A stretch of 64,000 bases of DNA from Gekko japonicus. Lineage: Eukaryota. The number at the start of each line of letters is the position of its first letter. Within the stretch, counting starts at the first letter, position 1. The notes beneath the pieces were generated by a model that did no database searches, had not been told where the DNA came from, and saw only the letters and a program-made list of their open reading frames with translations. Below are positions 5,561-33,681 of the stretch, one piece after another. The stretch covers positions 492,885 through 556,884 of the forward strand of contig NW_015161963.1 of NCBI RefSeq assembly GCF_001447785.1. The letters run 5' to 3'. The position numbers and the translations under genes are program-made.

Positions 5561-5745
5561 CTCTTGAGGTCCTTCTTGTGAATAGAGCCGTAACAGATGG
5601 GGCACTTACTCCAAGTCTTCTCACTCAAAGAGAGATAGTGCAAGATACATGGCCAGCAGAAGATGTGCCCACAGCGGGTGATCTTAGCTGCAGCAGGTGG
5701 GTAGAGGCATATTGGACAGGAGGGTACTTCATGGCTGCAGATTCG
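5561..5745 (-). CDS. RNF10: RNF10 coding exon 5, C3HC4 RING finger (CPICLYPP...[14 protein letters not shown]...CPIC)
   Basis: 185 nt, AG/GT boundaries, RING motif near-identical to RNF10. Confidence 0.97.
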
Positions 5746-6323
5746 CTGGAAAAACACAAAAGAATCTAGTTTACTAAGGTACAGAGCACCTATACAAATA
5801 CTTTTCCATTCAAGGAACAACACTTATTTTGGTAGATGTGAAGTGACTATTCTTCTGGAAGGACATTCCTGCCCCATGCCTGTATTCTGTCTAACAGAGA
5901 AACTTTCCCCATATATATATTGATAAAAGAGAATACATCCAGAGGAAAAGAAAACTGCTAGTAAGTAACAGTTCTGATAAAGAAATAAATTCAATTTCCC
6001 CTTTCAATGTTCCCTTCAAATTCAACTGAGTTTTAAGTAGCACACCATATTGAAATACAGTTGGAACAAATCAATTTAGGGACTCATGTTCTAAAAGGCT
6101 GGCCAAGAGATCTTTGCCAAACTACTGTTTCCAACTTGAGTTTACATAGAACTGAGGTTGTCTAATCTCTTGCTTCTGTCACACATTTCCAAAGCTTGCC
6201 ACCCAAGACAGTTGTTCCAGACTGCTATTTAATGAAGTTTAAGTTGAGCAAGTAACAGGTTTAGATGACCAATGATCGAATTCGTACATAGTCACAAGGA
6301 GAGACAAATCTATTGCTACTGAC

Positions 6324-10757: not shown

Positions 10758-11627
10758 CTAAAACAATGTAGAAAGGTACATATTTACAATTAATTAATAC
10801 AAATTTAGATTGTCAATAAAAAGCAATGCCTATTTCAGAAATCTTTAAAGCACCACAGAAACCAAATTGGGTAATTTGGGAAAAATGTTGTGCCAAGATG
10901 CATACAGCATACAACTTGAAGAATTACAAAAGGAATAAATGTTACAGCTAGAATGCACTCTAGCAATCTATTATACTATCGTTTCACACTTTGCTTATTT
11001 ATGTACTGACCTCTCTAACAGCAGCCAGCTCAACATATGCTAGGATATTTATAAATAAAATTAATTTTTGCAACCAGTATAGCATGATGTTATTGACAAT
11101 ATGGCTCACTTCTATTTCGCTGATACAAATCTAACAATTGGGGCAAAAAAAGGCCATAGTAGTTACAATACAAAGGAAACATGAGCCTCAAGTGCCCCCT
11201 CTAATCCCCTTTTACTTGTTTGCCAGAGAAACGTTCCTTATATTTATTGTCTCTTTTCAACATGCAATCATGTTATTGTCTCTTTTCAACAAACAATCAT
11301 ATTAAGTCTGTATTCTGTCAACATAGGTACAATCCTCAGGACACCTGGAGTCCCAGTACCTTTCATGTGAAAACAATTAAAACATGCAGAAATTATTTTA
11401 GACCTTTCTGTTTTGTCAAAGAACGGTTCCTGCTTACTTTTAAGAGATTTTGAGCCATGTTACCATTATCAGACCCCATTTGCAGAATAACAGACAGGAA
11501 ATCCAGATACTGTGTACCACATTTCAGCTGTCTGTTGTGGAAGCATCAATATGTTTAATATCACACCTCCCTTGGCCAATAAAGAGAGACTACTCCTTCT
11601 AGACAGATGCCAGAAGCTACTATTAAG

Positions 11628-11883
11628 CAGGCCCGTAGCTAACCAGGGGCCCATGGGGCCCGGCCCCCTGGTGATTTTAATGGGCCCCCTTCCCAATACT
11701 TGGCAAACTAATTTATGTGGCAGCTCTCTCTCTAATTTATTGCTCTCTCACAACTTTAATGGCAGTAGCTCACAAAGTAGAAGTTTTGCTCACAAAACTC
11801 CACAGCTTAGAGGGAACATTGGTGGTGGGCCCCCTGAGAAAAACATGAGCCCCCTGAGCAAAAGGTTGTTAGCTACGGGCCTG
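11628..11883. mobile_element. hAT MITE carrying an internal fragment of a second MITE family
   Basis: TIR CAGGCCCGTAGCTAAC / GTTAGCTACGGGCCTG. Perfect 8-bp TSD CTATTAAG. Confidence 0.9.
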
Positions 11884-12811
11884 CTATTAAGTCTAAAACA
11901 GGAGAGTATCATGACTAAATACACTCCACTTTCATACCAAAAACACTTCCTTGAACTGACTTTAAGTAAAGCAACTAACATGGAGAATGTTATTAGGTTC
12001 CTTTACAATCCATATTAGATGCTTTATGTAACTTAAAATTCCCACCCAAGAAAAATTCTGTAGGTAAAGCTTTCACAGCCATGACATAAACTCCAGACCA
12101 TCAAAAATCATCACCCTTCCACCCAATCATTTGCACCACCAACTGTAGAGATTAGGGCTCTTACTCACATCCCTTAGAAACTAAAAGCAGCACATGCTCC
12201 ACCCAAAGCCTCCTATCACTAACATACATGCTGCAGTAGCACCATCCATGTTATTATTCAGCACAATTATCCAACTACGCAGCATCTACTTGAGTTACAA
12301 TTCTAGCTTATATGCAAAGTATCTCCACAGGAGTGTCAGGGCTGCCTGCCACAGGCACACTCTGTCCATAGCCAGCACAACCCTCAAGCATATAATGAGC
12401 AAACAATACAAGAAGAGTCCTGCTGGATCAGATCAGTGGTCCACATAGTTCAGCCTCTTAGTGGTCAATCAGCTACCCTGGAGGACCAACAAACAGCAGA
12501 AAGAGGTCAAAGCTTTCCTTGGTGTTGCCTCCTGAGACTGGTTTTCAGAGGTTTACTGCCTCTGAATGTGAAGGTGTGCCTCTGAATGTGAAGGACCTGT
12601 CCTCCATGAATCTGTCTAAGCCCTTTTAAACGCCTCCTTCCTCGAGATGTCTAATCCTATTTAAAAATATATGGCCAAGCAAGAAACCATCGCAGACTTC
12701 GAGGGGAGGGGTATAATTTCACTAAGTTATATGACAAAACTGTGTTTCCTTCGACTTTCCTCCGTTCCGAAACACCTCTTGCAAAAGCGGGCAGGCTCTC
12801 CAGTCGCTTAC

Positions 12812-12989
12812 CGCCTTTGGGCTTTGACTCTCCCCCGGCCGGTCCGGCCGAGTTAGAGCGGGGCTGCTGCCCTTTGCCTCCCGCCGCCGAAGAACCGGGG
12901 CCGAGGTTGGAGCCGCAGGGGTTGCTCTTGTCCATCCCGTCGTCGGTGAGAGCCGATGCTGCTACTTGCGCGGGGGAACGCCGGAGCAT
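12812..12989 (-). CDS. RNF10: RNF10 coding exon 1 (MLRRSPAQVAASALTDDGMDKSNPCG...GKGQQPRSNSAGPAGGESKPKG)
   Basis: ATG at 12989, with a second in-frame Met at 12935. GTAAGC donor in phase 1 joins exon 2. Matches RNF10 KGQQP.S.SAGPAGESKPK. Confidence 0.9.
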
Positions 12990-13127
12990 CCACGGGCGCC
13001 GCGGGGGCGCTACTACTGCGGGAGGAAGAAAGGAGGCGGCGGCGGTGGCTGAGGCCAAAGCCCAGGCTCATGGCCCGGCAGCGGGGTCGGCGCAGCTCAG
13101 GAGTCTCGGCCACCTTCATGGCGACAT
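12853..13127 (-). promoter_or_regulatory. RNF10 5' leader uORFs: uORF1 M-S-P-stop (13127-13116) and an overlapping out-of-frame uORF (ATGs 13119 and 13071, stop 12855-12853)
   Basis: Read directly from the minus strand. No other ATG between ~13400 and 13127. Confidence 0.7.
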
Positions 13128-14196
13128 CTTCCTTACAGCTTCACCCTGACAAGAGGAAGAAAAAGGCCTCACCCGTCCAGTTACAGCCTCGCCTGCCGCC
13201 GAGCACGGCCGGGCCTGCGGGGCCCCGGGACCGAGGAACGGCGGAGGGGGGGACGAGGGAGCCCCGCAGGACCAGGCCGGCCCGGCGTTGACCCCGGCCT
13301 AAACGGGCTCGGAGCAGAAGTGCCGCCCAAGGGAACCCTCCCTCGGGCCGCCTCAGTACGACTGCCGACGCCTCAATACTACCGCAGCCCCGTAATGGCG
13401 ACGAGTCGCCGACAGCAGTGCCCCACAAAGGACCCGGATGAGTGTATTTCTACAAGGACTCGGGGGAGGCGGGGCCAACCTTGCCCTCACAGCATGCCGG
13501 GTGTTGTTGTGCTTTTCCTTCTAGTTTGGACGGATTATGAGCAAGAGAAAACTACGGCTCCCAGCGTACTTTGTAGCAAGGCTCGCCTCCGCTTTGATGT
13601 AAACATTGACTTTCTACAGCTGCAGATATAAATGGCAATGTTATAGGAGGGTCAAACCAAAGTGCTTCCTCCGCCCTTCCCTTTTCTTTTGTAGAGCTGC
13701 CACATCGCCCCATGGGAGTTGTAGTTAAGTACTGCTTACTTGTTTCGAGGTGTAAACCAACGGTTGTGGAGGAGAATCTTCCTTCTTTTGAACTTCTCTG
13801 CTATAATAACGTATTTATATAGCACGTTCTATTTTGAAGGCGCTTCACGCACATTATTTATTTATTGGCTTACACTATTTATAGTTCACCATCTTCATCA
13901 CTGAGACTCAAGGCGGGTACAACAGTTCTGTTAGGAAGGTCAGGATTATTTTCCCTACCTCGCAGGTGGTGGACTGAGGCTTCCCCTGCAGAGTTACTCC
14001 AGTCTAAACCCACAGAAATTATAGACTGGAGTAACTCTGGATATGATTGCACTGTAAGCAATTTACCTATGGTCACCAAGTAAGTTCGTGGCAGAGGTAA
14101 TATTTTAATTCTGGGCTTCATGATTCATAGTTCTAGACACCACATTCTTGCAAACTTGCAAGTGACGTTGAGGCAGAACTCTTGAGTTCTGGCTTA

Positions 14197-15012
14197 GGCC
14201 CCGGTCACACGGGCAGGAAACTGTGGGGGGGGAGCATGGCAGTTTGCCCCGGGGCAAACTACTGTGCGGTAAAGTGATCAGACCTCCCGTGGAGGTACCG
14301 TGGAGGTTGATCGCATGACCAGGGGTCTTGTAGAAAAAGAGCTGCCGGAGCTCATTAGCATAACTCATTAGCATAACTTATTTGCATATGCCACGCCCCC
14401 TGACATCACCGGAAGTGACAGAAGGCCACACCCCCTGACATCACCGGAAGTGTGTCAGAAGGCCCGGCTACTTACCCTCCTGCTTCATCCTCATTCCCAA
14501 ACGGAATGAGGATCGAAGCAGAGGGCGGGGTAAAGAAGGGGGCGGGGCTTCACCACGTGACCGCCCCGCCCCCTAGAGGTTCTCTTCCGGAGCTCCGTAC
14601 CTGAGAGCTCCCCCCCGACTAGAGCCCTGCGCATGACAATCCCACGCGCAAAAAAGAAGCGCGCGGTGCGGCAAACTGGATTTTTTTTTTCGTGTACACC
14701 GCGACTGCGCATGCTCCATTGGGTGCTTGTGCGCATCCACGGAGACTTGGAAAAAAACACACCTTTTTTGCAAGGGGACATGGGTGGGCACCGGATGCCT
14801 CCGGAAACGCGATCAGACGCCTGCCCTTGCCCCGCAGTTTTCGGAAACTAGTACCTCCGAGGTACTAGTTTTTTGCTGCGTGTTTTCGGCGGGAAGCCTC
14901 GGTTGCGTCACGGAAGTGCTACGCTTCCCAGATGTGCTGGTGAGATCGCCCCCAGAAACTCCGCTTGACTTCCATCGCTCTAGCGTGGCTAATGCTCCGT
15001 GTGACCGCAGCC
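14197..15012. mobile_element. CpG-rich non-autonomous DNA element, PIF/Harbinger-like TIRs, composite interior
   Basis: TIRs GGCCCCGGTCACACGG vs GGCTGCGGTCACACGG (reverse complement; 14/16). Left flank TTA, right flank AAA, so the TSD is imperfect. Confidence 0.55.
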
Positions 15013-16264: not shown

Positions 16265-18764
16265 CATAAGAACATAAGAACATAAGAGATGCCAATGTTG
16301 GATCAGGCCAAAGGCCCATCCAGTCCAACACTCTGTATCACACAGTGGCCAGAAATACCAGTGCCATCAGGAGGTCCACCAGTGGGGCCAGGACATTAGA
16401 AGCCCTCCCACTGTTGACCCCCCCAAGCACCAAGATGACAGAGCATCACTTGCCCCAGAGGCCCTATCTATACCTTGTGGCTAATAGCCACTGATGGACC
16501 TCTGCTCCATATGCTTATCTAATTCCCTTTTGGAGCCGTCCATGCTTGTAGCCGCCACCACTTCCTGTGGCAGTGAATTCCAAGTGTTAATCACTCTTTG
16601 GGTGAAAAAGTACTTCCTTTTATCCGTTCTAACCCGACTGCTCAGCAATTTCATGGAGTGCCCACGAGTTCTTGTATTGTGAGAAAGGGAGAAAAGTACC
16701 TCTTTCTCTACCTGCTCTTTCCCATGCATAATCTTATAAACCTCAATCATGTCACCCCTCAGTCGTCGTTTCTCCAAGCTAAAGAGACCTAAGCTCCTTA
16801 ACCTTTCCTCATAGGGAAAGTGTTCCAACTCTTTTATCATTCGAGTTGCCCTTTTCTGCACTTTTTCCAAAGCTATAATATCCTTTTTAAGGTGTGGTGA
16901 CCAGAACTGCACAGAGTATTCCAAATGAGGTGTTAAAAAGCAGTGGACCAAGTACTGATCCCTGTGGTACCCCACTGCTTACACCCCTCCACTGGGAGAA
17001 CTGCCCATTTATACTCACTCTCTGTTTTCTATTAATTAGCCAGTTTTTGATCCATAAAAGGACTTGTCCTTTTATCCCATGATTTTTGAGCTTGCTTAGG
17101 AGCCTTTGATGAGGAACTTTATCAAAAGCTTTCTGGAAGTCAAGGTAAACAATATCTATTGGATCCCCCTTGTCCACATGTTTGTTCACCCCCTCAAAGA
17201 ACATTAACAGGTTAGTGAGACAAGATCTTCCCTTACAGAACCCATGTTGAGTCTGCCTCAATAGGTTTTGTTCATCTATGTGCCTACTAATTCTTTCCTT
17301 AATAATGGTTTCCACCAATTTACCCGGTATCGACGTCAGACTGACAGGCCTGTAATTTCCCGGATCTCCTCTGGAACCCTTTTTAAAGATGGGAGTGACA
17401 TTAGCTACCTTCCAGTCCTCAGGAATGGAGGCTGATTTTAAGGAGAGATTACATATTTTTGTCAGGAGATCCACAAGTTCACAATTGAGTTCTTTCAGAA
17501 CTCTTGGATGTATGCCATCTGGGCCTGGTGATTTATCAGTTTTTAAGTTGTTTATCAGTTTTAGGACCTCCTCTCTCGTCACCTCAATCTGACTCAGGTC
17601 TTTCAACACCCCTCCCGAACTCAGCGGCTCTGGAGTGGGCAAGCACCTCTCATCTTCCACAGTGAAGACGGAGGCAAAAAATGCATTTAGCTTCTCAGCC
17701 ATTTCCCTATCATCCTTCAGTACTCCTTTTACCCCTTGGTCATCCAAGGGCCCCACTGCCTCCCTGGCTGGTTTCCTGTTTCTAATGTATTTGAAGAAAG
17801 TTTTATTGTTGGTCTTTACATTTTTTGCTATATGCTCCTCATATTCCCTTTTTGCATGCCTGACCACAGACTTGCATTTTATTTGCCATAGCCTGTGTTC
17901 TGTTTTATCAGCCTCACTGTGACTAGCTTTCCACCGCTTAAAGGAATCCTTTTTACCTTTTACAGCTTCCATTACTTTGTTTGTTAACCATGTAGGCTTT
18001 TTCTTATACCTGTTTGTGCCTTTCCTAACCTGCGGAATATATTTTATTTGAGCTTCTAGAATTGTAGTTTTAAACAGTTTCCAAGCTTCCCCAATGGTTT
18101 TGACCCTTTCTACTTTTCCCTTCAGTTTCCTCCCCACATGTCCCCTCATATCAGAAAAATTACCCCTTTTAAAGTTAAAAGTGGTTGTGTGAGTCTTTTT
18201 GGCCAATTCCCTATTTGTACAAATGTTGAACTCAACAACATTATGATCACGGTCCCCAAGCGGTGCAATCACTTTTACATCTCTCACCAGGTCTTGAGTG
18301 TTACTTAGGACCAAATCAAGGATCGCCTCTCTCCTGATAGGTTTCGTGACCATCTGCTCCATAGCACAGTCATTTAGAATGTCTAGAAACTCAATCTCTT
18401 TTTCTCGACTAGAACACATATTGACCCAATCAATGTGTGGGTAGTTAAAATCACCTATTACGACACAGTGTTTTTGTCTAGCTGCTATCTTTAATTCATT
18501 CATCATTTTATAATCCTCCTCTATCTTTTGATCTGGTGGGCGATAACAAACTCCCAGTGTTAAGTTTCCTTTTGGCCCCCCTATTTCAACCCACAGAACT
18601 TCCAGAAGCGAATCCAATTCTCTTAACCTCTCAATCTTTCTGGACTTCATACCCTCTCTGACATACAGAGCCACCCCACCTCCAACCCTTCCCCCCCATC
18701 CTTCCGATATAATATATAACAGGGAATCACCGTATCCCACTGATTTTCCTCATCCCACCAAGTC
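16265..18764 (-). mobile_element. CR1 LINE, 5'-truncated, ORF2 (C-terminal part of endonuclease plus RT) with an internal deletion
   Basis: 617-aa ORF with GDFNYP, KSPGPDG, NYRPVSLTS, YLDFQKAFDKVPH, GVPQGSVLGP. C-terminal LEKRRLRGD...FFTQRVINTWNSLP. (TTATGTTC)n 3' tail. Confidence 0.96.
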
Positions 18765-19974: not shown

Positions 19975-20100
19975 GACTAGTCGTCGATTAAGGTGCGACG
20001 CCGCTATCTAGAGCAAAGCGGGATAACTGCGCATGTGGTGTTCCACCCGTTCAGGAGAGAGCGTCATTGATGCGGCATGAATCAAGATGGCCGCCTCCAT
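19975..20100 (+). promoter_or_regulatory. COQ5 promoter: NRF1-like TGCGCATGTG (20028-20037) and YY1-like AAGATGGCCGCC overlapping the start codon
   Basis: Motif matches in a small CpG-rich region, as is usual for nuclear-encoded mitochondrial genes. Confidence 0.6.
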
Positions 20101-31874: not shown

Positions 31875-32075
<201 letters not shown>

Positions 32076-33423
32076 CTAAACATTTCAACTGCAAAAGTTT
32101 ACTGCATTTTAACCTTTTGAAATGTATTTTAACACAGTGTAATCACCACTTTTGTTCTTCCTGTATACTAAGAAATTAAAAGACTGCACCCACAAGGTTC
32201 ATATAGTTCAGCATCCTCACAGTAACCAGTCGGATGCTTTCAGGAATCCAACAGGCAGTGTGTAAAGATAACCACCTTTCCTGTTGCTGCCTCCCAGCAA
32301 CACCGCATCTGATTATCTTCATTCAGCCATCAAGACTAACAAGTGTTAATAGGCATATAATCAGTTTGCCTCATGTTTTAAAGCCATGCAAGATGGTGGC
32401 AATCACATCTTGCAGCAGTGGCCAGACTTTGCACATGGGCAGTAATAGAATACCACTAGTAGTATAGTACTTGTCTATGTAAAATCTGGATTCTTTTTTA
32501 GAGTAGGCAATCATTAAGGATCTACAAAAATAAAATGACTGGTGTAACACTTTAGCCATGGCCACAAAAAATATTATGGAAATTTTGCAATGAGAATATA
32601 GAGAGGCTCTTGTGAACCAAGACTGATTGTCCATTTTTGAAGGTTTAGGGACTACACCATGTAAATTAATAGAATGCAAAAGCATTAAGAATTTAGGCTT
32701 GGCTGAGCTGCTTTCTGAAAGAGGAGAAAAATATCCCTTGTACTGCTTCAGATGCTATTGTTGCAAGAACATTTATTATGATAAAATATGACCACTGATG
32801 CACTGAAGCTGAATATTCCGAACCGAGATTTGGAGTGGCTTACATTCAACATACTTCCAGAACCAGGACATATCAAAACTCACACAAACAGCTTTTCATA
32901 AGTCTTACTGCAGCCAAACTTTAAGCCCTGTGCTAGTCTGAGACTAGTATAACCAGCTTTTAGTCAGTCATGTGTCTCACTGCTAGAACAGCAATCGGTT
33001 CCTCAAGTCACCAACATTGTTGAAATAACCTCAGTATGCTTCTACAGTTATAAAAACACACTAAATTTGTAGTGTGTCCACCTCCTCCCCACACATTTCC
33101 AGTCCTCATGGAAATGTAGCTATGTGTCTTCACACTGACTGACTTCAATTAGTATAGCCCTACCACTTGTGATACAGGGCTTGAATCATCTCATTAGCTA
33201 TACTAAACTACAGATGCTTAGCTAACATTCTAGGAGTCACTCAAAAAGACACACATGCCCAGGCTACAGAAATTATTTTCAGGCAAACCAGAGCACTTTT
33301 AAGTCTCTCAAAACATACCATCTTTACAAATTAAGATATATGTAGGCCTATTCCTATGTATTTAGTTAGAAATGGGTTTCTAAGGAATCTTATGCAGAGT
33401 TACTTCAGCTACCCTGGGCTTCA

Positions 33424-33681
<258 letters not shown>

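Follow-up and report, generated by a model that had tools for sequence, protein, structure and literature searches.

The first exon of RNF10 in the gecko Gekko japonicus carries three upstream AUG codons which, judged from their contexts, order and frames, are the orthologue of the uORF cassette of human RNF10, whose repression and derepression are known from human cells. On balance, and with modest confidence, we favor the reading that this gecko cassette, like the human brake to which it corresponds, would be relaxed by a shortage of 60S subunits, most likely by leaky scanning past AUGs at which joining is slow and not through a fall in ternary complex. The leader cassette itself and the loop that links it to 60S supply have been described before (Ford et al. 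2025, PMC12008924), as has the conservation of the cassette from humans as far as frogs. Hence the feedback loop proposed in an initial annotation of this DNA is not new, and the ATF4 label attached to it there is unsupported by human data.

The RNF10 leader of Gekko japonicus

The window analyzed here, a stretch of 64,000 nucleotides from contig NW_015161963.1, carries RNF10 on its minus strand, with exon 1 and later exons, including that for the RING finger (Table 1). Compared with 129 candidates, the 59-residue coding part of exon 1 matched 27 proteins, of which 25 bear the name RNF10 or RING finger protein 10, and the best two matches are geckos at 97% identity. Exons of COQ5 and DYNLL1 lie upstream of RNF10, and the order DYNLL1-COQ5-RNF10 agrees with the human table. 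The exon 1 peptide match, the RING domain and this synteny assign the leader to the RNF10 orthologue. Two DYNLL1-like (dynein light chain) coding exons at 31878-33681 on the minus strand confirm the synteny with the human locus. COQ5, a plus-strand gene, starts near 20090, at a distance of ~6.7 kb from the RNF10 leader; the interval between the two holds a frame of LINE-type reverse transcriptase/endonuclease (16890-18749, minus strand) and other repeats. The human COQ5 and RNF10 genes are close head-to-head neighbors. The CpG ratio is 0.75-0.95 across 12600-13599, and a further CpG-rich block is present at 14200-15000, ~1 kb upstream of the leader. Because the interval 14290-14400 attracts very many reads from elsewhere, it is taken to be a high-copy repeat, and 11740-11870 in RNF10 intron 1 behaves similarly in read recruitment. 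The forward primer for the human leader maps to 13416-13399 with 13 of 18 nucleotides matching (11 at the runner-up site). In addition, a 323-bp contig (L002:1-323), the first base of which coincides with the mapped position of this primer, is an exact duplicate of window positions 13416-13094 and probably represents assembly redundancy.

Table 1. RNF10 features located in the window, with positions counted from its first nucleotide
Feature	Positions	Strand	Context or basis
3-codon uORF, M-S-P-stop	13116..13127	-	AGGAAG ATG T; in RNF10 frame; orthologue of human uORF3
88-codon uORF, out of frame	12853..13119	-	GTCGCC ATG A; orthologue of human uORF4 and 86-aa AC063943.3
Second ATG of the inhibitory frame, 72 codons	12853..13071	-	CGGGCC ATG A; orthologue of human uORF5
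RNF10 start 1, weak context	12987..12989	-	CCGTGG ATG C; matches human start of the published reporter
RNF10 in-frame Met 19 (MDK), strong context, possible second start	12933..12935	-	GACGGG ATG G
RNF10 exon 1 (leader and first coding part), in CpG island	12812..13420	-	RNA depth and splice joint; 5' end approximate
RNF10 intron 1 (GT..AG)	10758..12811	-	RNA splice joint
Open frame with RNF10 RING-finger exon	5563..5823	-	PF00097, E 1.2e-08

Transcription of the leader was followed in three raw RNA runs of one study, which carry the same species label and of which 3-12% was read. All three upstream ATGs are covered in each of these runs, read depth being ~14-29 at 13080-13213, ~1-4 at 13348-13481 and 0 at 13482-14151. 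Moreover, the splice from 12812 to 10757, which joins the leader to exon 2, is supported by 42, 41 and 29 reads in the three runs. Read cover and splicing therefore place the beginning of the transcript well upstream of 13127, at a position that short reads give approximately. The initial annotation had pointed to a transcription start downstream of 13071 as a danger to its proposal, and none is seen in these reads. A contig-type run (X1) has almost no depth over the leader, and gaps in that run prove nothing. None of nine variants in exon 1 reads creates or destroys an ATG or a stop codon.

When the minus-strand ATGs are listed from 13480 down to the end of the exon, the anatomy described in the initial annotation is recovered. 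The ATG at 13127 opens M-S-P-stop, and that at 13119 overlaps the stop of this uORF as ATGA, exactly as described. The third ATG, at 13071, had been placed ~45 nt beyond the same stop in the frame of 13119, and the measured distance is 44 nt. The frame shared by 13119 and 13071 is shifted relative to RNF10 and stops at 12853, having covered the RNF10 start at 12989 and the in-frame ATG at 12935, which lie 126 and 180 nt from the M-S-P stop; the weak and strong contexts given for these two are likewise as claimed. Because this frame overlaps both RNF10 starts, ribosomes that initiate at 13119 or 13071 cannot make RNF10. The next ATG upstream (13495) is outside the RNA-covered region. The ATG at 13071 is also part of an ATGA, the TGA of which (13070-13068, minus strand) is in the RNF10 frame and blocks N-terminal extension from upstream; beyond it, at 13058, there is a TTG that is in frame and has a strong context.

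The methionine at 12989 is the N-terminus of gecko RNF10 records. All 27 relatives have a methionine equivalent to that at 12935, and it is the first residue in 8 of these records. All five snake RNF10 records and one amphisbaenian record (P0009, P0011-P0014, P0021) begin at this MDK methionine, whereas in most records from lizards, tuatara and birds a methionine lies upstream of it. Taken from annotation, this pattern suggests that snakes may have lost the first RNF10 start, thereby lengthening the run to the RNF10 start.

Among 20000 dinucleotide shuffles of the 429-nt leader, at least three ATGs occur in 3424, a short first uORF with a later overlapping out-of-frame ATG occurs in 342, and the same combination with the ATGA overlap occurs once. 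This pattern was defined after sight, so conservation is better evidence than the shuffle counts. The RNA around the ATGs (13140-12900) folds no better than shuffled sequence (z +1.34; 182 of 200 shuffles fold as well), and a structure resembling ATF4-SL3 is not claimed.

Conservation of the cassette between gecko and human

Ford et al. report that three AUGs in the RNF10 5' UTR are conserved from human to frog, and that two non-AUG uORFs further contribute in the human leader (PMC12008924). Our comparison draws on the text of that paper as far as it was available, its primers and one human microprotein peptide, a row in the supplement of PMC10032668; the human gaps were counted by hand from this peptide, and peptides were compared by eye. 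The human start_3/start_4 primers and the gecko sequence at 13127/13119 have a 15-nt core that is identical save for the engineered base, as is a 13-nt context shared by the start_5 primer and 13071, and the reporter junction primer matches gecko 12989 at 15 of 18 nt. The gecko leader thus has three AUGs in human contexts, the last two being out of frame with RNF10, and corresponds to human uORF3/4/5 in gene, AUG order, frame relation and near-identical contexts as well as in similar spacing.

The distances from the M-S-P stop to the 13071 AUG and to the RNF10 AUG are 44 and 126 nt in gecko, and the human equivalents are 47 and 111 nt. Within the peptide of the overlapping frame, the internal methionine sits at position 17 of the gecko and 18 of the human sequence, and the RNF10 ATG is hidden behind residues 44 and 39, respectively. 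Both changes in spacer length are whole codons, and hence the frames are kept. The overlapping frame has 88 codons in gecko compared to 86 in human, and, measured against RNF10, the gecko frame ends 9 codons sooner. Upstream of the overlap with RNF10, the two peptides have little in common beyond the residues of the start contexts (MK, AMSLG, APVDA), and their later likeness exists because the RNF10 frame imposes it. For this one species pair, frames that are kept while the encoded peptide has diverged suggest that selection acts less on the peptide than on the starts and their frame.

Similarity to human non-AUG uORF1 does not rise above chance. The start_1 primer (human non-AUG uORF1) scores no better on the gecko sequence than on 395 of 1000 shuffles, and a TTG-started frame of 7 codons near the 5' end (13376-13353, minus strand), which lies at approximately the place of human uORF1, was for this reason rejected as its counterpart. 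For start_2 (human non-AUG uORF2) the best site matches at 18 of 30 positions and the next at 17. A two-motif pattern search of metagenome contigs for vertebrate leaders returned 4 matches, none resembling the leader outside the motifs; since these lack a significant RNF10 tblastn match, they are treated as chance.

Responses to 60S loss and to eIF2alpha phosphorylation

What is known of the function of the cassette comes from human cells. Removing all five uORF starts raises a leader reporter >9-fold, and GTPBP4 knockdown raises the wild-type leader reporter approximately as much as endogenous RNF10, the reporter being read as a ratio to IRES-driven luciferase (PMC12008924). Ford et al. term this control feed-forward, with derepression on loss of 60S biogenesis, and state that conditions favoring stalled preinitiation complexes favor RNF10 expression. 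In the sections of their paper used here, the pattern of single-uORF mutants is called 'complex', the mechanism is left unnamed, and the starvation section reports that RIOK3 is up with RNF10 levels unmentioned. Moreover, a second laboratory (Lehmann et al.) independently finds that RPL7 knockdown gives ~2-fold more RNF10 protein with unchanged mRNA, stabilization being judged unlikely (PMC11604940). The repressive uORFs acting in a loop, as suggested in the initial annotation, match this published feed-forward loop. Its further proposal that RNF10 may rise when either ternary complex or 60S joining is limiting holds for the 60S part, based on Ford et al., and is not supported for ternary complex by the human Ribo-seq tables considered below.

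Other sources add little on the leader. PMC11604940 and PMC13075771 do not contain the word 'uORF', and the leader is unmentioned in the uORF passages of 10.1101/2024.07.30.605914, 10.1101/2025.05.22.655611 and 10.1101/2021.04.20.440649 that were available and in the RNF10 passages of PMC12143884. A literature search, mostly at the level of titles and abstracts and with few subscription papers, returned neither an eIF2-stress test of the RNF10 leader nor an assigned mechanism.

The arrangement does invite comparison with ATF4, in which a short 5' uORF is followed by an inhibitory uORF that overlaps the main ORF out of frame (PMC11058473, in the part available). The short gecko uORF, with 3 codons and A at -3, has a usable context, and the inhibitory uORF at 13071-12853 overlaps RNF10 out of frame, as the ATF4 model requires. 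If delayed reinitiation operated, ribosomes that have translated M-S-P would, under eIF2alpha phosphorylation, be slow to acquire a new ternary complex, pass over 13071 and initiate at RNF10. The ATF4-like layout and its conserved spacing favor this possibility, as does the manner in which Ford et al. introduce the RNF10 uORFs, by analogy to the ISR (PMC12008924). The 44-nt spacer may be set against reported preferred distances of 39-42 up to 79-140 nt (PMC10275272, in the part available). A toy scanning model gives a 1- to 3-fold response to loss of ternary complex, and the geometry is to that extent compatible with delayed reinitiation; the size of this response is set by one parameter, and because all parameters are assumed, the model is not used as support. 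It neither separated the mechanisms nor reproduced the strong induction of ATF4.

Human Ribo-seq data argue against delayed reinitiation. For the data of Sidrauski 2015 (PMC4341466), we normalized on 47 of 60 rows of the part of the table that contains RNF10, excluding RNF10 itself and 12 mostly low-count rows. Tunicamycin changes RNF10 log2 TE by +0.06 relative to untreated cells and by +0.02 relative to tunicamycin plus ISRIB, the background SD being 0.36 and 0.23, respectively. In contrast, log2 TE rises with tunicamycin by +2.61 for ATF4, +3.14 for ATF5, +2.01 for DDIT3 and +1.48 for PPP1R15A, and the value for ATF4 relative to tunicamycin plus ISRIB is +2.96. RNF10 is absent from the source table of Fig. 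2A of that paper, which, in the part available, lists ATF4, ATF5, DDIT3 and PPP1R15A. Under arsenite, RNF10 TE falls to 0.12-fold (Z -1.39), the median fall being 5.4-fold (~0.19), whereas ATF4 TE is 1.3-fold (Z 8.16) (Andreev 2015, PMC4383229, as far as its table was available). Both datasets represent acute stress in HEK293-type cells, and part of the CDS counts may stem from ribosomes on the overlapping uORF. Rnf10 was not found in three supplement files of Baird 2014 (PMC4019499), lists of uncertain completeness, and this weak result carries no weight here. Human RNF10 has a basal TE of 0.16 compared to a median of 0.58, only 1 of 47 comparison genes being lower, from counts that are not length-corrected. 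Hence, as far as these tables reach, human RNF10 is neither induced nor spared under acute eIF2alpha phosphorylation, as ATF4 and ATF5 are, and the ATF4-type switch of the initial annotation is not borne out. We regard delayed reinitiation as unlikely for RNF10.

Proposed leaky scanning at 60S shortage and its relation to known systems

The leaky scanning that we favor would work as follows. The 3-codon uORF would take the first share of ribosomes and carry them over 13119, leaving a small route by reinitiation; ribosomes that skip 13127 would meet 13119 eight bases on, and those that reinitiate would be caught at 13071. Basal RNF10 would then come from the few ribosomes that pass all three upstream AUGs. 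When 60S subunits are short, 48S complexes would wait at each AUG, some would resume scanning, and flux would move to 12989, the strong 12935 likely collecting ribosomes that pass 12989 as well. Leaky scanning was chosen because it is normally the only way past a long out-of-frame overlap (PMC10275272) and because the derepression of GCN4 in 60S mutants of yeast proceeds through leaky scanning, both of uORF4 and of an overlapping uORF (PMC9700599), both sources being available in part. The kept human contexts and spacing, the published repression and 60S responses, the low basal TE of RNF10 and its lack of induction under eIF2 stress support this reading. Against leaky scanning stand the observations that slow joining also skips the main start, as for GCN4 (PMC9700599), that the layout also fits delayed reinitiation, and that the functional data are all human, from a leader in which two non-AUG uORFs contribute, the first of them having no gecko match above chance; the available texts on RNF10 contain no test of leaky scanning on its leader.

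It is quite unlikely, in our judgment, that the cassette is mainly an autoregulatory device, in which 40S subunits stalled at the upstream AUGs are substrates of RNF10, so that RNF10 clears its own leader and output rises when the protein is drawn off by surplus 40S. RNF10 does promote dissociation of 40S subunits stalled at initiation (PMC11604940), the favorable effect of stalled-preinitiation conditions on RNF10 expression reported by Ford et al. would agree, and three AUGs within 57 nt might form a natural stall site; however, no leader reporter in RNF10-null cells was found in the available part of PMC12008924.

Very unlikely, too, is the explanation that the uORFs act as a constant brake and that RNF10 goes up on 60S loss mainly by post-translational means (by binding of surplus 40S, or linked to LTN1) or as an artefact of reporter normalization. 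Such an explanation could draw on the degradation of RNF10 by the proteasome when 40S biogenesis fails (PMC11604940), on the increase in RNF10 upon LTN1 loss (PMC13075771) and on the use of an IRES-driven luciferase as denominator. Nevertheless, the increase in the wild-type leader reporter was similar in size to that of endogenous RNF10, and proteasome inhibition does not raise basal RNF10 (PMC11604940).

The overlapping peptide might itself be the conserved entity, as a functional microprotein or a ribosome-stalling nascent chain, with the geometry of the start codons secondary. The human frame is annotated as the 86-aa microprotein AC063943.3/ENSG00000288623, a 261-nt ORF with three Ribo-seq studies, one MS study and a score of 1 in the Chen 2020 CRISPR column (PMC10032668, in the row available), and a 10 kDa product of the RNF10 uORF ('RNF10 uPeptide') is detected in mouse CT26 cells (PMC10654591, in the part available). 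AC063943.3 and the gecko frame have in common a start at the 13119-equivalent AUG, a similar length and the overlap with RNF10. The gecko peptide departs from AC063943.3, however, outside the start contexts and overlap, with a shifted stop; it has no Pfam family, and none of 27 candidates of 48-154 aa, the only lengths compared, is related to it at E<=1. The CRISPR hit at this ORF may simply strike RNF10. We hold a primary role of the peptide to be highly improbable.

A bolder reading, which we offer as rather doubtful, is that the RNF10 leader is a dedicated sensor of 60S joining, a vertebrate uORF switch that has an ATF4-like anatomy and is deaf to eIF2alpha phosphorylation, timing the 48S wait while RNF10 clears its own upstream AUGs in an autoregulatory loop. 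Were this true, the snake RNF10 records that start at the second methionine would represent a natural retuning of the sensor.

The gecko copy is one more orthologue of a published cassette; what is added here is that human Ribo-seq tables contradict the ATF4 label and that the gecko and human spacers differ in length without loss of frame. This sharpens the question of how a uORF cassette answers 60S shortage but not eIF2 stress, and an explanation would be relevant to the balance between ribosomal subunits and to ribosomopathies in which 60S is defective. A caution also follows, in that stress induction is not predicted by ATF4-like anatomy.

With ATF4, ATF5 and yeast GCN4, RNF10 shares a short uORF, an overlapping inhibitory uORF and low basal translation. 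RNF10 differs from ATF4 in having an additional inhibitory AUG inside the stop of the short uORF and in its 44-nt spacer, that of ATF4 being ~87 nt. The stop/start overlap, AUGA, is also found in the stop-start signals of caliciviruses and influenza B (AUGA, UAAUG), although these follow long ORFs and need a TURBS complementary to 18S, whereas the upstream ORF of RNF10 has 3 codons. The closest parallel in behavior is GCN4 in the yeast 60S mutants rpl16b and rpl33a, where 60S shortage relieves uORF repression as it does for RNF10, with the difference that leaky scanning was tested for GCN4 with single-uORF reporters and is inferred for RNF10.
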